In this document: one piece after another, positions 17,928-33,902 of the stretch
How the letters are laid out: every line of letters starts with the position of its first letter
Position numbering within the stretch: position 1 is the stretch's first letter
IMG/VR virus record: IMGVR_UViG_2850756110_000011
DNA: 38,644 bases
Direction: 5' to 3' (one strand)
From: a virus
Lineage: Duplodnaviria; Heunggongvirae; Uroviricota; Caudoviricetes
Program-made: the position numbers and the translations under genes
The notes under the pieces: model-generated
Told to the model about the DNA's origin: nothing
Database searches by the model: none
Seen by the model: the letters and a program-made list of their open reading frames with translations, nothing else

Positions 17928-18962
17928 TTAAGTAGCTAGTTTATAACTATCAAATTTAACAATGTTATCACTTACCAATTTATTTATTTCCATCATTCTT
18001 TTTTGTAACGGTATTAACTCGTTACGTACAAACACCAGGCTCGCCTTCTCCACATCCCCAAACCCCCCGACATTATTAGGCATAATCCCCATCATTTGCG
18101 GTGGCACACGATGCGCCGCCATCATGTCATCCCGGCTCACGTTCTTGATGTTCAGAAACTCATCCTTCGCCGCGACTTCTGACAACGGGATGATCTGAAG
18201 CCCGTCCTTTTTGCCGTTAGGCGAGTACATAAACAGATTGCGGAAGTTACCTGGTCCTTTGGCGCTTTTCATCGCATTGCGGAGGTTGTTCACATCCTCC
18301 TGGTTTTGCGCGGCATCGGTCATGTACATGATGAAGCCTGCATGACTGCCGTTAATGTAATACTATCGGCGGAACAGCGTGGCGGACTCGTTGAGCAGGG
18401 CTGACGGAATGGCAGAAAGGTAACCTGGCAGGCCGTAGATCTCTTGGTTGATGTCCGGTTCCATCAGATGAAAGATGCTTCCTTTCGTGAACTGATACGG
18501 CTGCGTGGTCATGCCGTATTGCACAAACCAGTAGGTATCCAGGTCTAATCCGCGTCGGGTGTATTTTGCCAGAGCAGGCTCAAGAGCGATGACCTCTCCG
18601 AACCGGTTTGTGCGTTTCTCCAGGTAAGCGTTACCAAATACCAGATAATCCTGCACAAAACGTGAAAAAGCCTGCTGGCTGAGCAGCGGGTGAGGGATGT
18701 AGGTACTGATCAGAATGTTGCATTTCACCGCAATTGGTGAACTGTGATGCACGGCGGCGCGGAAGGTGCGCGCCAGTCCGTCAAAACTCACTGGCGGCTC
18801 ATACCAGCGATCTGTCTGTACGCATTCCACATAGTCCAGTAGTTCACGGCGGTCCAGAACCGGAACGGGATCGCCGAAGCTGAATGCTTCGGCTGAAGTC
18901 TGGTTTTTATGCTGGGTCTGTTTCGTCGCCGCAGCGCGGTTCTTCTTACTCTTTCCCATCAA
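17928..18962 (-). pseudogene. P2 gpQ-like portal protein with an in-frame TAG stop (18363-18365) after codon 199
   Basis: Two ORF calls (18363-18962 and 17928-18329) are in the same frame: ...SATLFRR*YYINGSHAGFIMYMTDAAQNQ... Confidence 0.8.
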
Positions 18963-20725
18963 AAAATCTCCACAATATTGCTGGTATTGGCGGACTCGCC
19001 CTGCAGCGGTTCGTTAAACAGTGCGTGCATTGTTGCCCAGGCCAGATCGGCATGGCTGGCTTCTTCGCTGCGGCTGGCTTCATAGGTCGGGCGGTTGCCG
19101 CTGGCGGTGGTGGCGCGACGGATTGCCATGAATGACTGCGCAATGTCGGTGTGCCCGGCGTCAAACTCAAGACGGCGGTGGCTGATAATGTCGTAGGCCT
19201 TGAGTACCAGGGCGTTTTTAACGTTGGGGTTGTAGACAAACTCCCGGACGGCAGGAAAAAACGCTTTCACGTTCTCGTAAACCCCGTGACCAACGCCGGT
19301 TGAGTCGATGCCGATATAGGTCACGTTGTACTGTTCAGTCAGTTTTTTGATGGCGTAAGCCTGGGCGCGAAAGTCCATTCCGCGCCACTGGTGACGCTCA
19401 AGAATGCGGAACTTACCGCCTGGCACGGCTGGCGGTGCCACCACCACGCATCCGGCGCTGTCGCCGTTCTGCGTACCTTTTGCCGGGTCATAACCGATCC
19501 ACACTTCGCGCCAGCCAAACGGGCGCAGGGCCAGTGCATGAAAGTCGGTCCAGACTTCCCAGCTGTCCACCATGCACGCCTGCAATTCGCTGAGCGGGAA
19601 CACGGACGCGAGATCGTCCACGAACTCGCACATCAGCAGGTTCTGGTATTCGTCAGGGCTGTACTCCATGCGCAACTGGTCAAGGTCGAACAGGTTACAG
19701 GCGCCGCGCACCGCATCTTCCACGGTGACTATCTGGCGGTATTGCCCGTCTGCGCACAGCAGGCCGGGGGCCAGATTGCTGTGGGACAGGTCGATGTCCA
19801 CCTTGTCAGCTTTGTTGCGCCCACGGTTGAACAGCGCACCGGACCAGAACGGATAAGCACTGTGGGTCAGACTGGATGGTGTGGAAAAATAGGTCTGCCG
19901 CCATTTCTTGTGAATAGCCATACCAGAAGCCACTTTGCGTAGCTCCTGAAATTTCGGTATCCAGAAATATTCATCCAGATACAGGTTACCGTGATAACTC
20001 TGGGCAGTGCGGGCATTGGTGCCGAGGAAATACAGTGTGGCCCCGTTGGGAAGCACCATCGGATCGCCTTTCAGCTCCACCTCCACTTCTTTGGCAAAGT
20101 CGATGATGTACTGTTTGAAGACGTGGGCCTGTGCCTTACTGGCAGAAAGGAAAATCTGGTTACGTCCGGTAAGCAGGGCGTCAATCAGGGCTTCACGGGC
20201 AAAATAGAAGGTCGCGCCGATCTGGCGTGACTTCAGCAGGTTGCGGATGCGGTTGGTTTTTCCGGCTTCCCACCAGTGGCGCTGGTAGTTGAACATGGAG
20301 GAATGGAAATTTTTTTCCAGCTTCTCAATCTGGTCATCGGTGAAAACATTCTTTTCAGGCTGACGGCGTGGGCCTTTGTTGCGGTTGGCGACGTTAGGGT
20401 TTAAGTCGGCTTCGTTGCCGCCATTGTTAAACTTGCCGATCCGCGCGTGGCGCTCAGACTGGCGCGCCAGCAGGTCAATATCTTTGAAATCTTTCCCTTC
20501 TTTGTGCTCCTTCATGATGAGCTGGCAGTAGCGTGCGGCGGTGGTGAGCTGCATCTGATCCAGAGGCCCATAGTCACCCCACTTGTCGCGTTTTTTCCAG
20601 CTGTAAACGGTTGCAACTTTCTCGCCCAGCATTTCAGCAATGCGGGCTACGCGGTATCCCTGAAAGTACAGCAGCATGGCCTGCCGACGGGGATCGAGAT
20701 CTGCGGGTGTCAGTGTGGTGTTCAT
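18959..20725 (-). CDS. terminase large (ATPase) subunit, P2 gpP-like
   Basis: 588 aa, P2 gpP-sized; adjacent to and overlapping the portal gene start. Confidence 0.9.
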   Translation of the reverse strand: MNTTLTPADLDPRRQAMLLYFQGYRVARIAEMLGEKVATVYSWKKRDKWGDYGPLDQMQLTTAARYCQLIMKEHKEGKDFKDIDLLARQSERHARIGKFNNGGNEADLNPNVANRNKGPRRQPEKNVFTDDQIEKLEKNFHSSMFNYQRHWWEAGKTNRIRNLLKSRQIGATFYFAREALIDALLTGRNQIFLSASKAQAHVFKQYIIDFAKEVEVELKGDPMVLPNGATLYFLGTNARTAQSYHGNLYLDEYFWIPKFQELRKVASGMAIHKKWRQTYFSTPSSLTHSAYPFWSGALFNRGRNKADKVDIDLSHSNLAPGLLCADGQYRQIVTVEDAVRGACNLFDLDQLRMEYSPDEYQNLLMCEFVDDLASVFPLSELQACMVDSWEVWTDFHALALRPFGWREVWIGYDPAKGTQNGDSAGCVVVAPPAVPGGKFRILERHQWRGMDFRAQAYAIKKLTEQYNVTYIGIDSTGVGHGVYENVKAFFPAVREFVYNPNVKNALVLKAYDIISHRRLEFDAGHTDIAQSFMAIRRATTASGNRPTYEASRSEEASHADLAWATMHALFNEPLQGESANTSNIVEIF

Positions 20726-20771
20726 GGCACAAACCTACAGCCTTGAATGAAGGCTTTCCCCGCCTGCGGTT

Positions 20772-20789
20772 TGTGTGGTTGTCGGTACA
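20772..20789. promoter_or_regulatory. P2-type late promoter activator site (TGT-N12-ACA dyad) in the divergent P/O intergenic region
   Basis: TGTGTGGTTGTCGGTACA read directly; Ogr-family activators recognise TGT-N12-ACA upstream of P2 late promoters (established knowledge). Confidence 0.45.
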
Positions 20790-20867
20790 AATACCGCGCA
20801 TTGTTTCACTGCCCCTATCACCGCAACCATAAGGCTCCAGTAAGTTTTTTCTAACGGAGCACGGCTC

Positions 20868-21701
20868 ATGACAGTGAAAGCAAAGCGTTTTCGCATCGGG
20901 GTGGAAGGTGCCACCACCGACGGACGCGAAATCCAGCGTGAATGGCTGGAACAGATGGCAGCCAGCTATAACCCGGCGGTGTATACCGCGCTGATTAACC
21001 TTGAGCACATCAAGTCTTATCTGCCGGACAGCACCTTTAACCGCTACGGCAAGGTGACGGCGCTGTTTGCTGAAGAAATCACGGAAGGTCCGCTGGCAGG
21101 CAAGATGGCGCTGTATGCTGACGTTGAGCCAACGGAGTCCCTGGTGGAACTGGTGAAAAAAGGCCAGAAATTATTCACCTCTATGGAAGTCAGCCCGAAG
21201 TTCGCTGATACGGGCAAAGCCTACCTGGTCGGCCTGGCTGCCACTGATGACCCTGCCAGTCTGGGCACTGAAATGCTGACATTCAGCGCCAGTGCAGCCC
21301 ATAACCCGCTGGCAAACCGCAAGCAGAATCCCGCCAATCTCTTTACCGCCGCAGAGGAAACGGTGATCGAACTGGAAGAAGTCCAGGACGACAAACCGTC
21401 CCTGTTTGCCCGCGTCACGGCGCTGTTTACCAAAAAAGAGCAGTCCGATGACGCCCGGTTCTCTGATGTGCATAAGGCCGTGGAGCTGGTCGCCACTGAG
21501 CAGCAGAACCTGAGCGCACGCACCGAAAAATCCCTGTCTGAGCAGGAAGAACGCCTGTCTGAGCTGGAGACTGCCCTGCAGGCACAGCAAACCGCCTTTA
21601 ACGAACTGGTGGACAAGCTGAGTCATGAAGACAGCCGCCAGGACTACCGCCAGCGTGCAACAGGCGGTAACGCCCCCGCTGACACTCTGACCAATTGCTG
21701 A
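20868..21701 (+). CDS. capsid scaffolding protein, P2 gpO-like
   Basis: 277 aa; position and size between terminase and major capsid. Confidence 0.85.
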   Translation: MTVKAKRFRIGVEGATTDGREIQREWLEQMAASYNPAVYTALINLEHIKSYLPDSTFNRYGKVTALFAEEITEGPLAGKMALYADVEPTESLVELVKKGQKLFTSMEVSPKFADTGKAYLVGLAATDDPASLGTEMLTFSASAAHNPLANRKQNPANLFTAAEETVIELEEVQDDKPSLFARVTALFTKKEQSDDARFSDVHKAVELVATEQQNLSARTEKSLSEQEERLSELETALQAQQTAFNELVDKLSHEDSRQDYRQRATGGNAPADTLTNC

Positions 21702-21717
21702 TGGAGCACAAAACCTG

Positions 21718-22776
21718 ATGAAGAAGAATACCCGCTTTGCTTTTAACGCTTACCTGCAGCAACTGGCGCGTCTGAACGGTGTGGCAGTTGAAGAACTGTC
21801 CAGCAAGTTCACCGTAGAGCCGTCCGTGCAGCAGACGCTGGAAGACCAGATCCAGCAGTCCGCCGCTTTCCTGACTCTGATTAACGTCACGCCAGTGACT
21901 GAGCAGTCCGGTCAGCTGCTGGGGTTGGGAGTTGGCAGCACCATTGCCGGAACCACTGATACCACTGCGAAAGAGCGTGAACCTGTCGATCCGACGCTGA
22001 TGGTCGATGTGGAATATAAATGCGAGCAGACCAACTTTGACACGGTGCTGACCTACGCGAAGCTGGACCTGTGGGCGAAGTTTCAGGATTTTCAGGTGCG
22101 TATCCGTGACGCCATCGTGAAACGTCAGGCACTGGACCGCATCATGATCGGCTTTAATGGCGTGAAGCGTGCGAAAACCTCCAACCGTAGCGAAAACCCG
22201 CTGCTGCAGGATGTGAATAAAGGCTGGCTGCAGAAAATCCGTGAGGATGCACCGGATCACGTCATGGGCAGCACCACCACGGGCGGTGAAACCACACCGG
22301 GCGCAGTGAAAGTCGGGAAAGGTGGCGAATATGCCAACCTGGACGCCGTGGTGATGGATGCCGTCAATGAGCTTATCGACGTGGTCTACCAGGACGATGA
22401 CGATCTGGTGGTGATTTGCGGTCGTGAACTGCTGTCTGACAAGTATTTCCCGCTGGTCAACAAAGAGCAGGAAAACAGTGAAAAACTGGCTGCCGATATG
22501 ATCATCAGTCAGAAACGCATGGGTGGCCTGCAGGCCGTGCGTGCGCCGTTCTTCCCGCCGAATGCGCTGCTGATCACCCGTCTGGATAACCTGTCCATCT
22601 ACTGGCAGGAAGACACCCGCCGCCGTTCAGTTATCGACAACCCGAAACGTGACCGGATTGAAAACTTTGAATCCGTTAACGAAGCCTATGTGGTTGAGGA
22701 CTACCGCTGCGCCGCACTGGTGGAAAACATCCAGATTAGTGATTTCAGCGCCGCCGCAGCCGAAACCGGAGCGTAA
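21718..22776 (+). CDS. major capsid protein, P2 gpN-like
   Basis: 352 aa, P2 gpN-sized, following scaffold. Confidence 0.9.
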   Translation: MKKNTRFAFNAYLQQLARLNGVAVEELSSKFTVEPSVQQTLEDQIQQSAAFLTLINVTPVTEQSGQLLGLGVGSTIAGTTDTTAKEREPVDPTLMVDVEYKCEQTNFDTVLTYAKLDLWAKFQDFQVRIRDAIVKRQALDRIMIGFNGVKRAKTSNRSENPLLQDVNKGWLQKIREDAPDHVMGSTTTGGETTPGAVKVGKGGEYANLDAVVMDAVNELIDVVYQDDDDLVVICGRELLSDKYFPLVNKEQENSEKLAADMIISQKRMGGLQAVRAPFFPPNALLITRLDNLSIYWQEDTRRRSVIDNPKRDRIENFESVNEAYVVEDYRCAALVENIQISDFSAAAAETGA

Positions 22777-22779
22777 TCC

Positions 22780-23430
22780 ATGAGCCTGAGTCCCGCACGG
22801 CAGCATCGCCTGCGCGTTCAGGCTGAACAGGCCGCCCGTGAGGGTGGCAGTGTTCGCCACGCATCGGGCTATGACCTGATGCTGCTGCAACTGGCGGAAG
22901 ACCGCCGCCGTCTCAAGGGCGTTCAGTCCACGGTCAAAAAAGCGGAAATCAAAGTGGAGCTGCTGCCGAAGTACGCCGCCTGGGCGGAGGGTGTCCTGGC
23001 TGCCGGAGGCGCTCAACAGGATGACGTGCTGATGTACGTGATGTTGTGGCGCATTGATGCCGGAGATTATGCCGGGGCGCTGGAGATCTGGCGTCATGCC
23101 CTGCGTCATGGATGGGTGATGCCGCTGGGCAACCGCAACGTGCAGACCGTGCTGACAGAGGAAATGGCAGATGCAGCGCAGAGCGCAATGCTTGCCGCCA
23201 CCGGCTTTGATGCCGATCTGTTGCTGCAGACGCTGGAGCTGACAGACGGTCTGGATATGCCGGACCAGTCACGGGCACGTCTGCATAAAGCGATTGGCGC
23301 GGTCCTGAGTGAAAGCAATCCGGCTTCCGCCCTTAATCATCTCAACCATGCGTTACAGCTCGATCCCCGCTGTGGCGTGAAAAAAGACAAACAGCAGCTG
23401 GAGCGCAGACTGCGCAATGACAGCCGCTGA
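22780..23430 (+). CDS. terminase small (endonuclease) subunit, P2 gpM-like
   Basis: 216 aa; ...DDVLMYVMLWRIDAGDYAGALEIWRHALRHGW... resembles my recollection of P2 gpM. Confidence 0.8.
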   Translation: MSLSPARQHRLRVQAEQAAREGGSVRHASGYDLMLLQLAEDRRRLKGVQSTVKKAEIKVELLPKYAAWAEGVLAAGGAQQDDVLMYVMLWRIDAGDYAGALEIWRHALRHGWVMPLGNRNVQTVLTEEMADAAQSAMLAATGFDADLLLQTLELTDGLDMPDQSRARLHKAIGAVLSESNPASALNHLNHALQLDPRCGVKKDKQQLERRLRNDSR

Positions 23431-23525
23431 CAGAACGTGCCCCCGCGCACGGGCGGCACGGGGTGGCGAAAGGCACAGCCACATCAAAACCCCGTCCACC
23501 GCCCTTTATTTCAGGAGAAAGCAGC

Positions 23526-23972
23526 ATGAAGTTTGTTGCGCCAGAACAGGCACCGGAACAGGCGGAAATCATTAGAAATACGCCGTTCTGGCCTGATGTG
23601 GACCTGTCGGAGTTTCGCAGTGTCATGCGCACTGACGGCACGGTGACGCAGCCGCGTTTAAAGTAGGTTGCACTGTCGGCAATTTCGGAGGTTAACGCAG
23701 AGCTGTATGAATTTCGCAGACGCCAGCAGATGCTGGGGTATGCGTCGGAACAGCTGGACGGGAAAAGTGAGCGCATTCAGCACTATTTCAACGCGGTTTA
23801 CTGCTGGGCTCGCGCCATGCTCAACGAACGTTTCCAGGACTATGACGCCACGGCATCCGGTGCGAAGCGGGGCGAAGAACTGGCGGAAGCAAGCGGTGAT
23901 TTGTGGCGTGACGCCCGCTGGGCCATCAGCCGGGTGCAGGACGCGCCGCACTGCACAGTGGAGCTTATCTGA
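23526..23972 (+). pseudogene. head completion/stabilisation protein, P2 gpL-like, with an in-frame TAG stop (23664-23666) after codon 46
   Basis: MKFVAPEQ...TQPRLK*VALSAISEVNAELYEFRRRQQMLGYASEQ...; both ORF calls share one frame; RBS CAGGAGAAAGCAGCATG. Confidence 0.7.
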
Positions 23973-24175
23973 TGAAAGTGCGTGCGCATCAGTATGACAC
24001 GGTGGACGCGCTTTGCTGGCGTCATTACGGGCGCACGCAGGGTGTCACGGAGCAGGTACTGAAGGCAAATCCGGGGCTTGCCGAATACGGCCCCTTTGTA
24101 CCTCACGGGCTGCAGGTGGAGCTGCCGGACATTCCGACCACCACCACCGTGCAGACCGTCCAGCTATGGGACTGA
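23972..24175 (+). CDS. tail protein, P2 gpX-like
   Basis: 67 aa; position between L and lysis genes. Confidence 0.7.
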   Translation: MKVRAHQYDTVDALCWRHYGRTQGVTEQVLKANPGLAEYGPFVPHGLQVELPDIPTTTTVQTVQLWD

Positions 24176-24178
24176 ATT

Positions 24179-24394
24179 ATGACGCTTGAGCGAATCAGCG
24201 CCTTTATCACGTATTGCATCGCCGTCGTGCTGGCCTGGCTGGGCGATTTGTCCATCAAGGATGCCTCAACGCTGGGCGGCCTGATGATTGGTGTGCTGAT
24301 GCTGGCTATCAACTGGTACTACAAACACAAAGCCTACCAGCTTCTGCGCGACGGGCAGATCTCGCGGGAGGACTATGAATCCATCAATCGTTAA
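24179..24394 (+). CDS. holin (small two-TMD membrane protein)
   Basis: 71 aa with two hydrophobic segments and charged C-terminus; immediately upstream of and overlapping the endolysin. Confidence 0.65.
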   Translation: MTLERISAFITYCIAVVLAWLGDLSIKDASTLGGLMIGVLMLAINWYYKHKAYQLLRDGQISREDYESINR

Positions 24395-24887
24395 ACGCTG
24401 CCTTGTCGGGGCCGTGCTGGCTATTGCTGCCACGCTGCCGGGTTTTCAGCAGCTTCACACCTCCGTGGAGGGACTGAAACTGATTGCCGATTACGAAGGT
24501 TGTCGTCTGCAGCCGTATCAGTGCAGCGCGGGTGTCTGGACCGACGGTATTGGTAATACGTCGGGCGTCATTCCCGGCAAAACCATTACGGAGCGACAGG
24601 CAGCAGAAGGGCTGATCTCCAACGTGCTGCGTGTGGAGCGGGCGCTTGAAAGGTGTGTGAAGCAACAGCCGCCGCAGAAGGTGTATGACGCTGCGGTGTC
24701 GTTTGCCTTCAACGTGGGTACGGGCAATGCCTGCAGTTCCACGCTGGTGAAATTGCTCAATCAGCGGCGCTGGGCGGATGCGTGCCGACAGTTGCCGCGC
24801 TGGGTTTATGTGAAAGGTGTTTTTAATCAGGGGCTGGATAACCGCCGTGCGCGGGAGATGGCCTGGTGTTTACAGGGAGCAAACTGA
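24375..24887 (+). CDS. endolysin, lysozyme-type with N-terminal signal-anchor (SAR-like) segment
   Basis: N-terminal hydrophobic LVGAVLAIAATLPGF, then ...GLKLIADYEGCRLQPYQCSAGVWTDGIGNT... lysozyme-like core. Confidence 0.85.
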   Translation: MNPSIVKRCLVGAVLAIAATLPGFQQLHTSVEGLKLIADYEGCRLQPYQCSAGVWTDGIGNTSGVIPGKTITERQAAEGLISNVLRVERALERCVKQQPPQKVYDAAVSFAFNVGTGNACSSTLVKLLNQRRWADACRQLPRWVYVKGVFNQGLDNRRAREMAWCLQGAN

Positions 24888-24888
24888 A

Positions 24889-25266
24889 ATGAAAAAGAAA
24901 TTAATCAGCGGGCTGTTTCTGATGTTATGGATGGCGCTGTTAATCGCAGCAATAGTGTATCCGCAGGGGATTTTTCCGGTACTGGCAGCGTCCGGCGTTT
25001 GGGTAGCCTGTTTACTGACATGGGCGGTAATTCCGGTAGCACTGGCTTCGTTAATTAAGAATGGCCCGCTCTGGCAGGAGTTGAGGGCATCTTTACTGAA
25101 GACAATTACCCGAAAAGAAAACGTATTTATCAGCTGGGTGATACGATTGCTGATTGTCGTCAGTCTCGCCTGGACGGGGTGGGCCATTACCCTGGTCTTT
25201 TATCTGCTGACCGTTATTGCCTTCTGGATCACCCGTAATCAGATGGCGCAACAGGTAGCCGCATGA
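24889..25266 (+). CDS. lysis-associated membrane protein (LysA-like, about 4 TMD)
   Basis: MKKKLISGLFLMLWMALLIAAIVYPQGIFPVLAASGVWVACLLTW...; internal start of the 149-aa ORF call. Confidence 0.55.
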   Translation: MKKKLISGLFLMLWMALLIAAIVYPQGIFPVLAASGVWVACLLTWAVIPVALASLIKNGPLWQELRASLLKTITRKENVFISWVIRLLIVVSLAWTGWAITLVFYLLTVIAFWITRNQMAQQVAA

Positions 25267-25691
25267 ACCGGTTGCTGCTGGTTGTGCTGGCGTTATTATT
25301 GGCGGCGCTGGGCTGGCAGACGTGGCGGCTGGCTGATGCCAGCCAGACCATCAGCACGCAGGCAGACGAGCTGCAGAGCAAAAGCCAGGCACTGGCAAAG
25401 AGCAACAGCCAGCTTATCAGCCTGTCCATTCTGACTGAAACCAATAACCGGGAGCAGGCGCGGCTCTATGCCGAAGCAGAACAGACCAGTGTACTGCTGA
25501 GACAACGACAACGCCGGATTGAGGAACTGAAACGTGAGAACGAGGATTTACGTCGCTGGGCTGATACTCCTTTGCCTGCTGACATTATCCGGCTGCGGGA
25601 ACGTCCGGCACTCACCGGAGGTGCAGCTTACCGTCAGTGGTTGTCCGCGAGTGACGCCGTGTCGGCTGGAGCAGGCAGCGCCGCGCACTAA
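25263..25691 (+). CDS. i-spanin (Rz/LysB-like)
   Basis: N-terminal TMD then coiled-coil rich sequence; overlaps preceding gene stop. Confidence 0.65.
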   Translation: MNRLLLVVLALLLAALGWQTWRLADASQTISTQADELQSKSQALAKSNSQLISLSILTETNNREQARLYAEAEQTSVLLRQRQRRIEELKRENEDLRRWADTPLPADIIRLRERPALTGGAAYRQWLSASDAVSAGAGSAAH

Positions 25692-25824
25692 CGGTGATCT
25701 GAATGCGTTGCTGGATGAAACGGAGGCCGCCTGGGCGGTCTGTGCAGACAAAGTGGACATGATTATTGCGTGTCAGGAGCGAAATAGTGAACAAACCACA
25801 ATCCCTGCGCCACGCCCTCAATAA
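25534..25824 (+). CDS. o-spanin (Rz1/LysC-like lipoprotein) in an alternative frame overlapping the i-spanin
   Basis: Signal peptide with lipobox LTLSGC, proline-rich; embedded/overlapping arrangement typical of spanin pairs. Confidence 0.5.
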   Translation: MRTRIYVAGLILLCLLTLSGCGNVRHSPEVQLTVSGCPRVTPCRLEQAAPRTNGDLNALLDETEAAWAVCADKVDMIIACQERNSEQTTIPAPRPQ

Positions 25825-26218
25825 AGCAGTGCCTTATGTCCGTAATAACCCGGACAAACTGCATCTGTTTGTGGATAACGGTTCGCTGGTTGCCTCCGGG
25901 GCTAGCTCCATGTCATGGGAGTACCGCTACACCCTGAACGTGGTGATTGAAGATTTCAGCGGCGACCAGAATCTGCTGATGGCCCCGGTTTTGCTGTGGC
26001 TGCGGGATAACCAGCCCGATGCGATCAATAACCCGGCGTTACGGGAAAAGCTATTCACCTTTGAGGTGGATATTCTGCGCAACGATGTCTGTGATATCAG
26101 CCTTAACCTGCAACTGACGGAGCGTGTGCTGGTCAGCACTGACGGCAGTGTGTCGAACGTTGAAGCGGTAGCGGAACCTGATGAACCTGAAGAAATGTGG
26201 ACGGTGAAACGTGGCTGA
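25787..26218 (+). CDS. tail completion protein, P2 gpR-like (GTG start)
   Basis: VNKPQSLRHALNKAVPYVRNNPDKLHLFVDNGS... with RBS AGGAG 7 nt upstream. Confidence 0.7.
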   Translation: MNKPQSLRHALNKAVPYVRNNPDKLHLFVDNGSLVASGASSMSWEYRYTLNVVIEDFSGDQNLLMAPVLLWLRDNQPDAINNPALREKLFTFEVDILRNDVCDISLNLQLTERVLVSTDGSVSNVEAVAEPDEPEEMWTVKRG

Positions 26219-26612
26219 ATTGCAGAAGGTGGACGACTGGCTGAGTGCATTATTGGCGAATCTGGAGCCAGCCGCAAGAAGCCGCATGATGCGCCAGCTG
26301 GCGCAGGAACTGCGCCGGACACAGCAGCAGAACATCAGGATGCAGCGCAATCCAGATGGCAGCAGTTATGAGCCGCGCAGGGTAACAGCACGCAGCAAAA
26401 AGGGGCGCATCAAACGTCAGATGTTTACAAAGCTGCGCACCACAAAATACCTGAAAACTGCAGCCAGCGCCGATTCTGCCAGCGTACAGTTTGAAGGTAG
26501 GGTGCAGCGCATTGCCCGTATTCACCATTACGGCTTGAGTGATCGCGTCAGTCGAAAAGGTATTTATACCATCTATGCGAAAAGGCAGTTATTAGGTTTT
26601 AATGTCCGGTAA
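26211..26612 (+). pseudogene. tail completion protein, P2 gpS-like, 3' end truncated by IS1 copy 2
   Basis: ORF runs into the IS1 left end at 26608 and terminates on IS1-encoded codons. Confidence 0.7.
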
Positions 26613-26662
26613 TGCTGCCAACTTACTGATTTAGTGTATGATGGTGATTTTAAGGTGCTTGC

Positions 26663-26938
26663 GTGGCTTCCATTTCCATCAGATGTCCTTCCTGCTCCGC
26701 TATTGAAGGCGTGGTGCGTAACGGCAAAAGCACTGCCGGACATCAGCGCTATCTCTGCTCTCATTGCCGTAAAACATGGCAACTACAGTTCACTTACACC
26801 GCCTCTCAGCCCGGTACGCACCAGAAAATCATTGATATGGCCATGAATGGCGTCGGATGTCGCGCCAGTGCACGCATTATGGGCGTTGGCCTCAACACGG
26901 TTTTACGTCACTTAAAAAACTCAGGCCGCAGTCGGTAA
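26663..26938 (+). CDS. insA: IS1 InsA
   Basis: [40 protein letters not shown]... Confidence 0.9.
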
Positions 26939-27360
26939 CCTCGCGCATACAACCGGGCAGTGATGTGATTGTCTGCGCTGAAATGGACGAACAGTGGGGC
27001 TACGTCGGTGCTAAATCACGTCAGCGCTGGCTGTTTTACGCGTATGACAGGATACGGAGGACGGTTGTGGCGCACGTCTTCGGTGAACGCACTCTGGCCA
27101 CACTGGAGCGTCTTCTGAGCCTGCTGTCGGCCTTTGAGGTCGTGGTATGGATGACGGATGGCTGGCCGCTGTATGAATCACGCCTGAAGGGAAAGCTGCA
27201 CGTTATCAGCAAGCGTTACACTCAGCGCATTGAGCGACATAATCTGAATCTGAGACAACATCTGGCAAGGCTGGGACGGAAGTCACTGTCGTTCTCAAAA
27301 TCGGTGGAGCTGCATGACAAGGTCATCGGGCATTATCTGAACATAAAACACTATCAGTAA
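26937..27360 (+). CDS. insB: IS1 InsB' frame (expressed as InsAB' by -1 frameshift)
   Basis: ...[28 protein letters not shown]...[40 protein letters not shown]. Confidence 0.8.
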
Positions 27361-27370
27361 GTTGGCAGCA

Positions 27371-27907
27371 TTACCATGCAGCCCTCACAATATAGTTAAA
27401 AGCGACATTTCGTGGGCGTGTTTCATTCGCACCTGCAGGTTTAGTCGTTGCCGCAACAACACCACCCTCTGTAATAGCCGGGTTGGGAATTGGGTAATTA
27501 TCGAAGTCAATGGCCGGAGACAGGGGCGTGATTTGTTTTAAAATCGTGGTGCCTGTAAAACTTTCCAGAGTCTGGTCGTTAGTTCGTGAAGTCCAGATTC
27601 CCCAATAGTGGTTATGACTGACAATCGCACCGTCCTGAAGCGTTAATAATCCCCTTCCGTTATCCACTCCACGTCCGTCATCCCAGCCACGAATAAACTC
27701 ACCGCGTAAATCAGGCAATTTATTTGTCGGGTAAGCCTTTGCCAGTTCCGGGTATTCTTCAGCAGAAAAAGCCGCACCATTGCATTTCAGCCAGCCTGTC
27801 GGCGGAGTGGCTGAAGGCCACGGAACAGGCACACCAACAGGTAATGCAGAGCCTTCTCCCAAACCAACGTTTAAGAAAATGCAGAGATAATGGCTAACTG
27901 GCATCAT
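27371..27907 (-). CDS. phage tail-fibre variable C-terminal segment with tail-collar domain; orphan alternative segment of an invertible tail-fibre locus (5' limit arbitrary)
   Basis: ...PVGVPVPWPSATPPTGWLKCNGAAFSAEEYPELAKAY...LPDLRGEFIRGWDDGRG...ETRPRNVAFNYIVRAAW; stop codon partly supplied by the IS1 end. Confidence 0.7.
   Translation of the reverse strand: MMPVSHYLCIFLNVGLGEGSALPVGVPVPWPSATPPTGWLKCNGAAFSAEEYPELAKAYPTNKLPDLRGEFIRGWDDGRGVDNGRGLLTLQDGAIVSHNHYWGIWTSRTNDQTLESFTGTTILKQITPLSPAIDFDNYPIPNPAITEGGVVAATTKPAGANETRPRNVAFNYIVRAAW
27854..27879. other. gix/hix-like recombination site for the adjacent invertase
   Basis: TTCTCCCAAACCAACGTTTAAGAAAA resembles my recollection of the 26-bp gix/hix sites (TTCCTGTAAACCGAGGTTTTGGATAA). 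Confidence 0.5.
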
Positions 27908-27934
27908 CCCCGGTTTTTATTCAGGGGATTGATC

Positions 27935-28501
27935 ATGCTTATTGGCTATGTACGCGTGTCAACAAATGACCAGAACACCGATTTGCAACGTAATGCACTG
28001 AACTGCGCGGGATGTGAGCGGATTTTTGAGGATAAAATCAGTGGCACTAAGCCCGACAGACCGGGGCTTAAAAAACTGCTCAGGACACTATCGGCAGGAG
28101 ACACGCTGGTTGTCTGGAAGCTGGACAGACTGGGACGCAGTATGCGGCATCTTGTTACGCTGATAGAAGAGTTGCGCCAGCGTGGTGTGAATTTCCGAAG
28201 CCTGACTGACAGTATTGATACCAGTACCCCAATGGGCCGTTTCTTTTTTCACGTCATGGGGGCTCTGGCTGAAATGGAACGTGAACTGATAGTTGAACGT
28301 ACCAGAGCAGGGCTGGCTGCAGCTCGTGCCAAAGGCAGAGTAGGTGGACTCCGTCCTAAGTTGACCACCGAACAGTGGGCACAGATTGGACGTTTACTCG
28401 AGGCCGGAGAATCAAGACAGCGTATTGCACTGATTTTTGATGTGGGCGTTTCTACCATTTATAGAAAATTTCCGGCGAATGAGAGCAATGAATCGCCCTG
28501 A
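27935..28501 (+). CDS. serine recombinase, DNA invertase of the Gin/Hin/Pin/Cin family
   Basis: MLIGYVRVSTNDQNTDLQRNAL...RLGRSMRHLVTLIEEL...GVSTIYRKF; catalytic Ser in the YVRVST motif, C-terminal HTH. Confidence 0.9.
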   Translation: MLIGYVRVSTNDQNTDLQRNALNCAGCERIFEDKISGTKPDRPGLKKLLRTLSAGDTLVVWKLDRLGRSMRHLVTLIEELRQRGVNFRSLTDSIDTSTPMGRFFFHVMGALAEMERELIVERTRAGLAAARAKGRVGGLRPKLTTEQWAQIGRLLEAGESRQRIALIFDVGVSTIYRKFPANESNESP

Positions 28502-28549
28502 GTCAGTATTATTTTGATTTTTCCTGTAAGCGGACAAATACCGTCATTT

Positions 28550-28567
28550 TGTGTGAATAACGACACA
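28550..28567. promoter_or_regulatory. P2-type late promoter activator site (TGT-N12-ACA) upstream of the sheath gene
   Basis: TGTGTGAATAACGACACA read directly, about 75 bp upstream of the FI start. Confidence 0.45.
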
Positions 28568-28643
28568 ACTGCGCTTAGCTGTTTGTCAGGCACAATCACT
28601 TCAACATAGGGCGAAGCCTAATCCAATCAGGAGGTTCGCCACT

Positions 28644-29816
28644 ATGGCTCAGGATTACCACCACGGGGTGCGCGTTGTTGAAGTCAACGAAGGCACCCGA
28701 TCCATTACCACGGTGAGCACCGCCATCGTGGGTATGGTCTGCACGGGCGATGATGCCGATGCAAAAATGTTTCCTCTTAATAAACCTGTGCTGATCACTG
28801 ATGTGCTGACCGCCAGCGGTAAAGCGGGTGAGTCTGGCACGCTGGCCCGTTCGCTGGATGCCATCGCTGACCAGGCAAAACCCGTGACCGTTGTTGTGCG
28901 TGTGCCGCAGGGTGAAACGGAAGAAGAAACCACAACCAATATCATTGGCGCAGTGACCGCCGAGGGTAAAAAAACAGGTATGAAAGCCCTGTTATCTGCC
29001 CAGTCACAGCTCGGCGTTAAACCGCGCATTCTCGGCGTGCCAGGTCACGACACGAAGGCGGTAGCTACTGAGTTGCTGAGCGTGGCGCAAAGCCTGCGTG
29101 GATTTGCTTACCTGTCAGCGTATGGTTGCAAGACGGTGCAGGAAGCAATCACTTACCGTGAAAACTTCAGTCAGCGTGAAGGAATGCTGATCTGGCCCGA
29201 CTTTACTGGCTGGGACACGGTGCTGAATGCCGAAGCAACGGCTTATGCCACCGCCCGTGCGCTCGGTCTGCGCGCTAAAATTGATGAGCAGACCGGATGG
29301 CACAAAAGCCTGTCCAACGTGGGCGTGAACGGTGTCACCGGAATTTCTGCTGATGTGTTCTGGGATCTGCAGAACCCGGCAACCGATGCAGGTCTGCTTA
29401 ACCAGAACGATATCACCACGCTTATCCGCAAAGACGGTTTCCGCTTCTGGGGTTCCCGCTGTCTGAGCGATGATCCGCTCTTTGCCTTCGAAAACTACAC
29501 CCGCACGGCGCAGGTGCTGATGGACACGATGGCAGAAGCGCACATGTGGGCGGTGGACAAACCGCTGAACCCGTCGCTGGCCCGCGACATTATCGAAGGT
29601 ATCCGCGCCAAAATGCGTAGCCTGGTCAGTCAGGGCTATCTCATTGGTGGTGATTGCTGGCTGGACGAGTCGGTGAACGATAAAGACACGCTGAAAGCCG
29701 GGAAACTCACCATCGATTACGACTACACGCCAGTGCCGCCACTTGAAAACCTGATGCTGCGTCAGCGCATCACCGATCAGTACCTGGTGAATTTCTCCAG
29801 CCAGGTCAGCGCGTAA
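28644..29816 (+). CDS. contractile tail sheath protein, P2 gpFI-like
   Basis: 390 aa, P2 FI-sized, followed by tube gene. Confidence 0.9.
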
Positions 29817-29825
29817 GGGGACAAC

Positions 29826-30341
29826 ATGGCTTTACCACGCAAATTAAAACACCTGAACCTGTTTAACGACGGGAACAACTGGCAGGGGATCGTTGAGTCG
29901 CTGACGCTGCCGAAATTCACCCGCAAATATGAGAAGTATCGCGGCGGCGGTATGCCCGGAGCGGTGGATGTGGATCTGGGACTGGATGACAGTGCACTGG
30001 ATACAGAATTTTCCATTGGTGGTACTGAACTGCTGCTGTTTAAGCAGATGGGCAAAGCCACGGTGGATGGCATCCAGCTGCGCTTTACCGGCTCTATTCA
30101 GCGTGATGATACCGGGGAAGTGCAGGCCGTGGAGCTTGTGGTGCGTGGACGTCACAAAGAAGTAGATTCCGGCGAGTGGAAGACGGGCGAAAGCAACACT
30201 ACCAAAGTGACCAGTACCAACAGCTACGCGAAGCTGACCATCAATGGTGAGGTGCTCTATGAAGTGGACCTGATCAACATGGTGGAAATTGTGGACGGTG
30301 TGGACCTGATGGAAGCGCACCGCAACGCCCTCGGCCTCTGA
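29826..30341 (+). CDS. tail tube protein, P2 gpFII-like
   Basis: 171 aa. Confidence 0.9.
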   Translation: MALPRKLKHLNLFNDGNNWQGIVESLTLPKFTRKYEKYRGGGMPGAVDVDLGLDDSALDTEFSIGGTELLLFKQMGKATVDGIQLRFTGSIQRDDTGEVQAVELVVRGRHKEVDSGEWKTGESNTTKVTSTNSYAKLTINGEVLYEVDLINMVEIVDGVDLMEAHRNALGL

Positions 30342-30395
30342 TGTATCTGAACGGCGCGGAATGCCGCGCCAGAACCTAATTTACAGGACAACAAA

Positions 30396-30698
30396 ATGAG
30401 CGATAAGCAGACTGAAAAGACCATTCAACTGGATACTCCCATCATGCGCGGTAAAACAGAAATTACCGAAATTGTGTTGCGTAAACCGCAGTCCGGTGCG
30501 CTGCGCGGCACACGCCTGCAGGCCATTATGGATATGGATGTGAACGCGATGATGACCGTGATCCCCCGCATCTCCAGTCCGGCACTGACTGCACAGGAAA
30601 TTGCAGAGATGGACCCGGCAGATCTCACTGCCATGTCGGTTGAGGTTGTCACTTTTTTGTTGAAGAAGTCGGTGCTTGCCGGTTTACCGACAGCCTGA
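30396..30698 (+). CDS. tail assembly chaperone, P2 gpE-like
   Basis: 100 aa ending ...VVTFLLKKSVLAGLPTA; contains slippery TTTTTTG. Confidence 0.8.
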   Translation: MSDKQTEKTIQLDTPIMRGKTEITEIVLRKPQSGALRGTRLQAIMDMDVNAMMTVIPRISSPALTAQEIAEMDPADLTAMSVEVVTFLLKKSVLAGLPTA

Positions 30699-30832
30699 CG
30701 GTTGACGATCTGGTGGCTGATATCGCCACCATCTTTCACTGGCCGCCATCCGTTACTGACGTTATGCCGCTGACCGAAGTGCTGGAATGGCGGGATAAAG
30801 CGATTCAGAGAAGCGGGGCCAGCCATGAGTGA
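30396..30832 (+). CDS. tail assembly chaperone extended form (gpE+E'-like) by programmed -1 frameshift at TTTTTTG (30653-30659)
   Basis: -1 frame after the heptamer is open for 58 codons (FFVEEVGACRFTDSLTVDDLVADIATIFHWPP...WRDKAIQRSGASHE) and ends overlapping the tape-measure start. Confidence 0.6.
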
Positions 30833-33800
30833 CAATAACCTGCGTCTGCAGGTGATTCTTAATGCGGTTGACAAACTCACCCGCCCATTTCGATCCGCGC
30901 AGGCCAGTTCAAGAGAACTGGCTGCTGCTGTCAAAAAATCCCGCGATGCAATAAAGCAGCTTGATCAGGCCGGGAGCAGTCTGGACAGCTTCCGAAAGCT
31001 GCAGGCAGAAAATCAGAAATTAGGCGACAGGCTGAACTATGCCCGCCAGCGTGCAAATTTGCTCAGTCAGGAACTGGGAGCGATGGGGCCGCCTTCGCAA
31101 CGTCAGGTTGTTGCTCTGGGCCGTCAACGGCTGGCTGTTCAGCGCCTGGAAGAACGCCAGAAAAAGCTGCAGCAGCAGACGGCGCTTGTGCGTGCAGAAC
31201 TTTATCGTGCTGGTATTTCAGCTAATGATGGCGCCAGTGCGACGGCCCGCATTACCCGTGAAACGATGCGTTATAACAGGCAGCTTTCTGAGCAGGAAGC
31301 GAGGTTACGACGTGTCGGGGAGCAACAGCGAAAAATGCACGCCGCCCGGGGGCTTACGCCAGGCGTCTTGAGGTAAGGGATCGTATTGCAGGTGCCGGAG
31401 CCACCACCACGGCTGCAGGGCTGGCAATGGGCGCACCAGTGATGGCGGCAGTAAAAAGCTATACCAGCATGGAAGATGCCATGAAAGGTGTGGCAAAGCA
31501 GGTCAATGGTCTGCGTGACGATAATGGCAACCGCACTGCGCGTTTTTACGAAATGCAGGGTGCCATCAAGGCTGCCAGCGAACAGTTGCCGATGGAAAAC
31601 GGTGCTGTGGACTTCGCCGCACTGGTTGAAGGTGGTGCGCGCATGAACGTCGCAAACCCTGACGACAGCTGGGAAGACCAGAAACGTGACCTGCTGGCCT
31701 TCGCCAGCACGGCGGCAAAGGCGGCAACAGCCTTTGAACTGCCAGCGGATGAACTGTCAGAAAGTCTGGGGAAAATCGCCCAGCTCTACAAAATCCCTAC
31801 CCGCAATATTGAGCAGCTCGGTGATGCGCTGAACTATCTGGATGATAACGCCATGTCGAAAGGGGCGGACATCATTGATGTCATGCAACGCCTGGGCGGT
31901 GTGGCTGACCGTCTGGATTATCGTAAAGCGGCGGCGCTGGGTTCCACCTTCCTGACACTCGGCGCTGCGCCTGAGGTTGCAGCCAGTGCAGCAAACGCGA
32001 TGGTGCGTGAATTGTCCATTGCCACCATGCAAAGCAAGAGTTTCTTTGAAGGGATGAATCTGCTGAAACTCAATCCAGAAGTGATTGAAAAGCAGATGAC
32101 GAAGGATGCGATGGGAACTATCCAGCGGGTGCTGGAGAAGGTGAATGCGCTGCCACAGGATAAGCGCCTGTCTGCCATGACCATGTTGTTTGGTAAAGAG
32201 TTTGGCGATGACGCAGCGAAACTGGCAAACAACCTGCCGGAACTTCAGCGCCAGTTAAAACTGACTGCGGGCAATGATGCGCTCGGTTCCATGCAGAAAG
32301 AATCCGACATCAACAAGGATTCACTTTCTGCTCAGTGGTTGCTGGTCAAAACCGGAGCACAGAACACCTTCAGCAGCCTGGGGGAAACGCTGCGCCAGCC
32401 GCTGATGGATATTCTGTACACGGTGAAAAGCGTCACGGGGGCGTTGCGTCGCTGGGTGGAAGCTAACCCGGAACTGACGGGCACTCTGATGAAAGTAGCC
32501 GCTGTGGTAGCTGCCGTTACCGTGGGCCTCGGCACCTTAGAGGTGGCGCTGGCTGCAGTGCTGGGGCCGCTGGCAGTCATCCGTCTGGGATTCTCTGTGC
32601 TGGGTATCAAAACGTTACCTTCCGTTACGGCAGCAGTAACCCGAACCAGCAACGCGTTGTCCTGGCTGGCTGGCGCACCACTGGCACTGCTGCGACGCGG
32701 GCTTGCTTCATCGGGCAACGCTGCAGGTTTACTTACTGCGCCGTTGTCGTCTTTGCGCCGCACGGCATCACTGACGGGAAATGTCCTGAAAACTGTAGCA
32801 GGTGCGCCGGTTGCACTTTTGCGGGTCTGGATTATCCGGTTTACGTGCGGTTGCTGTGATGTTTATGAATCCACTGGCGGTACTACGCGGCGGACTGGCT
32901 GCCACAGGCACGGTGCTGCGTATGCTCGCATCCGGTCCACTGGCGATGCTGCGCGTTGCCCTGTATGCCGTCTCTGGTCTGTTAGGTGCTCTGCTCAGTC
33001 TGATAGGTCTTGTGGTTACTGCACTGGCGGGTGTGGCGCTGGTTGTCTGGAAATACTGGCAGCCCATCACCACATTTCTCGGTGGCGTGGTGGAAGGATT
33101 CAAAGCGGCGGCAGGTCCTGTCAGTGCCGCGTTCGAACCGCTTAAGCCTGTGTTCCAGTGGATTGGCGACAAAGTACAGGCGCTGTGGGGCTGGTTTACT
33201 GATCTGCTGACGCCCGTTAAGTCGACCTCTGCCGAACTGCAGAGTGCAGCGGCAATGGGGCGACGATTCGGGGAGGCTCTGGCGGAAGGGCTGAATATGG
33301 TCATGCATCCGCTGGACTCCCTGAAATCCGGCGTTTCCTGGTTGCTGGAGAAACTTGGCATTGTCAGTAAAGAGGCCGCAAAGGCGAAACTGCCGGAAAG
33401 CGTGACGCGTCAGCAACCTGCGACGGTGAATGCAGACGGTAAAGTGATGATGCCATCGGGTGGTTTTCCGTCATGGGGATATGGCTTTGCGGGGATGTAT
33501 GACAGCGGCGGGTATATCCCGCGCGGGCAGTTTGGCATCGTCGGTGAAAACGGGCCGGAAATTGTTAACGGCCCGGCAAATGTGACCAGCCGGAGAAATA
33601 CAGCTGCACTGGCTGCCGTTGTTGCCGGAATGATGGGTGTTGCTGCTACGCCAGCAGAGCTTCCACCGTTGCACCCTTTGGCACTTCCCGCGAAAGGCGG
33701 TGAAGCGATGGTGAGTCGTGCAGCCACTGTGCCGCCCGTTCAACGGATTGAGGCACCGATGCAGATCATCATTCAAACGCAGCCAGGACAAAGTGCGCAG

Positions 33801-33902
33801 GATATTGCGCGGAAGGTGGCCCGCCAGCTTGATGAACGTGAACGCAGGCTGAAGGCAAAAGCCAGGAGTAACTACAGCGATCAGGGGGGATACGACGCAT
33901 GA
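30825..33902 (+). pseudogene. tail tape measure protein (gpT-like), split into three ORFs by a -1 frameshift near 31330 and a +1 frameshift near 32820
   Basis: ORFs 30825-31376, 31427-33145 and 32802-33902 are each tape-measure-like (coiled coil, then GAPLALLR-type repeats); frames differ by -1 then +1. Confidence 0.8.

Follow-up and report, generated by a model that had tools for sequence, protein, structure and literature searches.

The portal protein of phage P2, gpQ (AAD03268.1), is encoded by a gene of 344 codons that lies directly downstream of the terminase gene P, overlaps it by one base and diverges from genes O, N, M and L, which specify the scaffold, the capsid protein, the small terminase and the head-completion protein, respectively. 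Members of the gpQ family typically have an open frame of about 341-355 codons. Amber codons in P2 gene Q are also known from classical laboratory mutants, in which they would make head assembly conditionally defective. The interval between gpA and gpQ is a defence hotspot in P2-like phages (PMC9122126). Prophages described as 'grounded' are vertically inherited remnants under IS-driven and mutational decay (PMC6379469). In DLP12, e14, Rac and Qin, mobility was lost through point mutations, insertions of IS elements and deletions; these prophages are passed on vertically and keep some of their cargo intact (PMC6379469). The closest E. coli match to the locus described here is a prophage of E. 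coli UPEC-245U/190328 (NZ_CP049845.1), hereafter referred to as L001, in which all genes are annotated as complete.

Here, we analysed a stretch of DNA of 38,644 nucleotides, hereafter referred to as the window, which contains a P2-type prophage with an in-frame amber codon in its portal gene. This codon is very probably a genuine, inherited nonsense mutation of Lys199 (AAG to TAG), which belongs to the ordinary decay of a P2-like (Peduovirus-type) prophage in an IS-rich Shigella background. The type of feature is ordinary and already annotated, namely pseudogenisation in a cryptic prophage. The allele differs from the laboratory Q ambers of P2 in being natural, widespread in Shigella isolates and accompanied by many other lesions. 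In its point mutations, IS insertions, deletions and intact cargo, the window prophage is similar to DLP12, e14, Rac and Qin; it differs from them in being P2-type and younger, and because most of its late genes are still recognisable, the order of its lesions can be read.

The portal gene and its immediate neighbour comprise the following features.

17928..18959, minus strand: portal pseudogene, homologue of P2 gpQ, 343 codons, from the ATG at 18959 to the TAA at 17928-17930
18363..18365, minus strand: amber codon TAG at portal codon 199, formerly AAG (Lys) as judged from relatives, by one A to T change on the coding strand at 18365
18366..18959, minus strand: 5' fragment of the portal gene, 198 codons, the sole part expected to be translated
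17928..18362, minus strand: 3' remainder of the portal gene, 144 codons and the stop, which contains an open reading frame of 133 amino acids from the ATG at 18329
18959..20725, minus strand: terminase ATPase gene, homologue of gpP, 588 codons, open reading frame intact, with five non-synonymous changes and one synonymous change relative to L001

Positions 18363-18365 read CTA on the plus strand and TAG on the minus strand. Between 18965 and 17925, the minus strand translates as a single frame whose sole internal stop is this codon (...NESATLFRR*YYINGSHAGF...). An earlier note on this DNA, made from the sequence alone, had placed an in-frame TAG inside a portal gene at exactly these coordinates and had described two portal-like open reading frames in the same frame with only the TAG between them; both statements agree with what we found, the two pieces in the list of open reading frames being 18363..18962 and 17928..18329, both on the minus strand. 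The strand of the gene was left unstated there. The arrangement is that of P2: the portal gene (343 codons, compared with 344) is directly downstream of the terminase gene, with a one-base overlap, and the P-Q pair diverges from O-N-M-L. The product has 61% amino-acid identity to P2 gpQ and differs from it by the stop in place of Lys199 and by two missense changes that are specific to its lineage, T84I (18709) and E331D (17967). When the lysine is restored, the protein matches the Phage_portal family PF04860 with 62 bits over residues 95-324, whereas the 5' fragment and the 3' fragment, scored separately, fall short of the cut-off of 39.1, with 16.1 and 33.5 bits. A sequence search of the restored protein against PDB chains gave no hits at E <= 0.01, so residue 199 was located by the span of the Pfam domain, in the middle of which it lies. 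The frame typical of the family is thus broken at codon 199, and 17928..18959 is a pseudogene, a non-functional member of the P2-type portal family. Re-initiation at the ATG at 18329 was considered and rejected, as a reading of the window sequence by eye, without scoring, revealed no convincing Shine-Dalgarno sequence upstream of it; we also know of no precedent for a split portal.

Codon 199 was compared with that of related portal genes. By megablast, 1,243 E. coli records match the portal gene. L001 is the closest, with 4 differences in 1035 bases (99.6% identity), and a second match, L002, differs from the window at 25 bases (97.6% identity); both have AAG. The panel of relatives consisted of 81 sequences, 80 from IMG/VR and P2 itself. 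AAG, within the conserved motif LFRRKYY, is found in 79 of the 81, down to P2 gpQ at 61% identity, and TAG is found in the other two, both of which are contigs 99% identical to the window. Since L001, L002 and 79 of the 81 relatives have AAG, the ancestral codon, as read from these sequences, is a lysine codon that a single A to T transversion turned into a stop. This comparison with P2-like portal genes, which the earlier note had proposed as a check, also bears out its remark that one base change would restore the frame. The TAG allele was absent from the complete E. coli genomes, among which the sole record with at least 99% identity has AAG. A 40-mer spanning the TAG had no exact match when searched against one genome per GTDB species, perhaps because GTDB counts Shigella within E. 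coli and the allele is missing from the representative; this result therefore carries no weight.

The earlier note had offered two readings of the stop, pseudogenisation of an essential morphogenetic gene or a sequencing artefact, and had allowed that two separate genes might be normal at this position. An artefact would mean that the true genome has a sense codon at 18363-18365, and a single-base substitution is a plausible type of error. However, the assembly collection has the exact 198-residue product ending at the TAG in 1377 index blocks and on at least 1000 contigs, which come from many independent projects and include finished chromosomes; the TAG is also present in two IMG/VR contigs, and the change is a base substitution rather than an indel in a homopolymer. 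The finished chromosomes with this product include CP000036.1, which we take to be Shigella boydii Sb227, and a CP0267xx/CP0268xx series. Sequencing error is therefore excluded as a general explanation. The TAG is real and present in independent assemblies, and a sense codon in the true genome is hardly credible. Pseudogenisation is the reading that stands, in view of the ancestral AAG, of the other essential genes that are broken and of the relaxed selection described below. The source names attached to the truncated product are Shigella and S. flexneri. Some public records do annotate the two pieces as separate proteins, the 5' fragment as 'Phage-related capsid packaging protein, Shigella' and the C-terminal open reading frame as 'capsid portal protein [Shigella dysenteriae]', which could be taken to mean that two genes are the normal arrangement. 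Against this, 79 of the 81 relatives have one continuous open reading frame of 341-355 codons, the E. coli matches listed have one continuous 'phage portal protein', and the PF04860 domain spans the stop. The chance that two genes are normal here is practically nil. A laboratory lysogen of a P2 Q amber mutant was also considered as the source and rejected: many natural Shigella assemblies carry the allele, and it is accompanied by IS-mediated decay. The chromosome CP026834.1 (L008) differs from the window by 3 bases in 17.9 kb, and the rare E331D allele is common to the window, L008 and an S. dysenteriae record; the source of the window is therefore most probably a nearby strain of the S. dysenteriae type.

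The gene order around the portal is that of P2-type phages, and the window is collinear with L001 over 13530-26607 and 27854-33728, about 19 kb in all, with 99.6-99.8% DNA identity. The two prophages also have the same junction with ybjL/ybjM/grxA and the same AAA-ATPase/HNH cargo. The window differs from L001 by amber codons in the portal gene and in gene L, by IS66 and IS1 insertions with deletions, and by frameshifts in the tape-measure gene. These lesions are located as follows.

11092..13529, plus strand: IS66-family element in gene A, with open reading frames at 11160-11561, 11558-11905 and 11954-13492
13530..14427, plus strand: 3' fragment of the replication endonuclease gene A, truncated at 13530 by the IS66-family element
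23526..23972, plus strand: head-completion gene, homologue of gpL, with an amber codon (CAG to TAG) at codon 47, 23664-23666, and an in-frame 18-bp deletion at about 23745
26608..27375, no strand assigned: IS1 copy, which replaces about 4.6 kb of L001 and trims the 3' end of gene S
30825..33902, plus strand: tape-measure gene, in three open reading frames, with a 1-bp deletion at about 31347 (in a run of five G) and a 1-bp insertion at about 32823

At the IS1 site, a DUF5677 gene, the baseplate genes V, W, J and I and most of the fibre gene H have been lost relative to L001. A 492-bp 3' piece of gene H (27376-27867) adjoins the IS1 copy and is inverted relative to L001, and a gene for a Gin/Cin-type invertase (about 27935-28501) adjoins this piece in turn. 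The region looks like an invertible fibre segment that has been flipped and partly deleted. Three other finished genomes likewise have the middle piece of the tape-measure gene, 572 amino acids in length, among their called products. Compared with P2, the window prophage would, from its gene content, lack the capacity to replicate and to build tails.

The substitutions in the portal and terminase genes differ in kind from those between intact relatives. On the window lineage, the ratio of non-synonymous (including nonsense) to synonymous changes in P and Q together is 8:2, whereas between L001 and L002, in which both genes are intact, it is 6:84 (Fisher p = 6.4e-7). For all late genes, the comparison of the window with L001 gives 18:8, against 9:101 for P, Q and O between L001 and L002 (Fisher p = 3e-10). 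This is the signature of virion genes that are outside purifying selection.

To order the lesions, ten loci from finished genomes, L003 to L012, were compared with the window. As the truncated product served to retrieve these loci, the shared TAG is true by construction, and only the uneven spread of the other lesions among them is informative. They fall into two groups. Group A is composed of the window, L003, L007, L008, L009 and L011, and has the amber codon and the 18-bp deletion in gene L, both confined to this sublineage of the amber-portal carriers, the IS66 element in gene A and four additional missense changes in P. Group B is composed of L004, L005, L006, L010 and L012 and has substitutions of its own; full-length L (154 amino acids) and A (804 amino acids) are called in most of its members. 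With L002 as outgroup, the changes common to both groups are G342A in P, the synonymous K6K, T84I and K199* in Q, two intergenic sites and one synonymous site in the ATPase gene. Because the carriers split into one sublineage with intact L and A and another in which these genes are broken, the portal amber would be older than the lesions in L and A. We infer that it probably predates most of the other lesions and is among the oldest, and it is plausible that it was the early event that immobilised, or 'grounded', the prophage. Downstream of the TAG, L005, L009 and L011 carry further indels, a loss of 1 bp in a run of six G at 18068 and one of 4 bp at 17986-17989, within an AAAT repeat, which fit a 3' part that has ceased to be read, errors of long-read assembly at homopolymers being an alternative. 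The scaffold gene O of L007 has a 21-bp insertion at the window equivalent of about 21565. Both the portal 3' indels and the insertion in O could represent either continuing decay or long-read homopolymer errors, and several of the indels scored as decay lie in short homopolymers of long-read assemblies and could likewise be assembly errors.

The proposed course of events is as follows. K199* would have arisen once, in the progenitor of one group of Shigella strains, and would have been inherited vertically since then. Translation of the P-Q message would end after residue 198 of gpQ, and the C-terminal 144 residues, which include the best-conserved half of the portal domain, would not be made. 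From the role of the portal, no dodecameric portal vertex would form, procapsid assembly and DNA packaging would fail, and no DNA-filled heads would be produced; portal function is in all likelihood lost. A phage that could not spread would leave its morphogenetic genes under relaxed selection, and further lesions, specific to each sublineage, would then accumulate. For annotation, this means that the two 'portal' open reading frames should be merged as one pseudogene and the prophage scored as defective, which affects predictions of prophage content and inducibility in Shigella. Beyond annotation the finding matters little; the locus is a neat case of a prophage that decays step by step and whose lesions can be put in order.

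A full-length portal might still be made if the TAG were read through, by a suppressor tRNA of the host or the phage, by programmed readthrough or by reassignment of the codon. The 144 codons beyond the TAG remain in frame in the window, the only two prophage genes with an in-frame nonsense codon, the portal gene and L, both have TAG, and TAG is unused as a normal stop: the approximately 30 prophage genes checked in 14581-35481 all end with TGA or TAA, although this usage is statistically unremarkable. The fact that both are amber carries no signal, because AAG and CAG reach a stop in one change only as TAG and the identity of the codon was forced by the ancestral one. Terminator usage is likewise uninformative for TAG recoding, and recoding is rejected by the homologues: the TAG is unconserved, with AAG in 79 of the 81 relatives and TAG only in near-identical Shigella-type copies. 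The window, over its 38.6 kb, contains no tRNA gene, and the context of the stop is UAG-U. UAG followed by U is an efficient termination context in E. coli. Frameshifts are found downstream of the TAG in other strains, and readthrough could not rescue a prophage that has lost genes for replication, baseplate and fibre. We consider production of a full-length portal highly improbable. It could also be supposed that the 198-residue fragment, or the pair of fragments, has been domesticated, for example as a decoy that disturbs the building of heads by superinfecting P2-like phages or P4 satellites. The fragment is identical over very many Shigella contigs, the upstream terminase frame in the same operon is still open, and the adjoining defence genes are conserved. 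However, recent common descent explains the identity, which is at least 99.6% over the whole region, the fragment has the lineage-specific change T84I, and the ratio of non-synonymous to synonymous changes in the operon is neutral-like. Domestication is very unlikely, and inherited nonsense mutation followed by ordinary decay remains the preferred reading.

The defence genes mentioned above consist of a pair located between gpA and gpQ.

15306-16955, plus strand: AAA_21/AAA_15 ATPase, candidate defence gene, one member of a PADLOC PDC-M01A/B pair, Septu-like
16957-17820, plus strand: HNH-type partner, candidate defence gene, the other member of the PADLOC PDC-M01A/B pair, Septu-like

The pair (15306..17820) is intact in the window. 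It matches PDC-M01A/B with E values of 3e-55 and 1e-33, and there is a weaker match to PtuA of Septu. On the Shigella lineage the pair has 0 non-synonymous and 3 synonymous changes, compared with 8:2 in P and Q (p of about 0.035, hypergeometric, calculated by hand), which suggests that the defence cargo is still under selection. The ATPase gene of L005 has a 1-bp deletion. These observations hint that defence cargo in the hotspot between gpA and gpQ may outlive the phage that brought it. A more specific scenario, in which the amber was the founding lesion that locked a PDC-M01-bearing prophage in the ancestor of a large Shigella clade, selection for the defence cargo then preserved the remnant as its virion genes decayed, and the 198-residue stump might interfere with P2- or P4-type elements, seems unlikely to us.

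To the left of 13530 there is a Rac-like lambdoid remnant (ydaT-type gene, HTH repressor, Rha/Ash protein), followed by a dense pile of IS elements. The pile, within 1-13529, consists of an IS3-family element, two IS66-family elements, two IS110-family elements (ISSso6-like) and IS1 fragments, and such density is usual in Shigella. Neither the 5' half of P2 gene A nor the early region is present in the window, and their absence implies a rearrangement mediated by IS elements. The right end of the prophage adjoins ybjL/ybjM/grxA. In L001, the prophage is located between rcdA/ybjJ and ybjL/ybjM/grxA, and the rcdA/ybjJ flank is also present in the sister locus L012.
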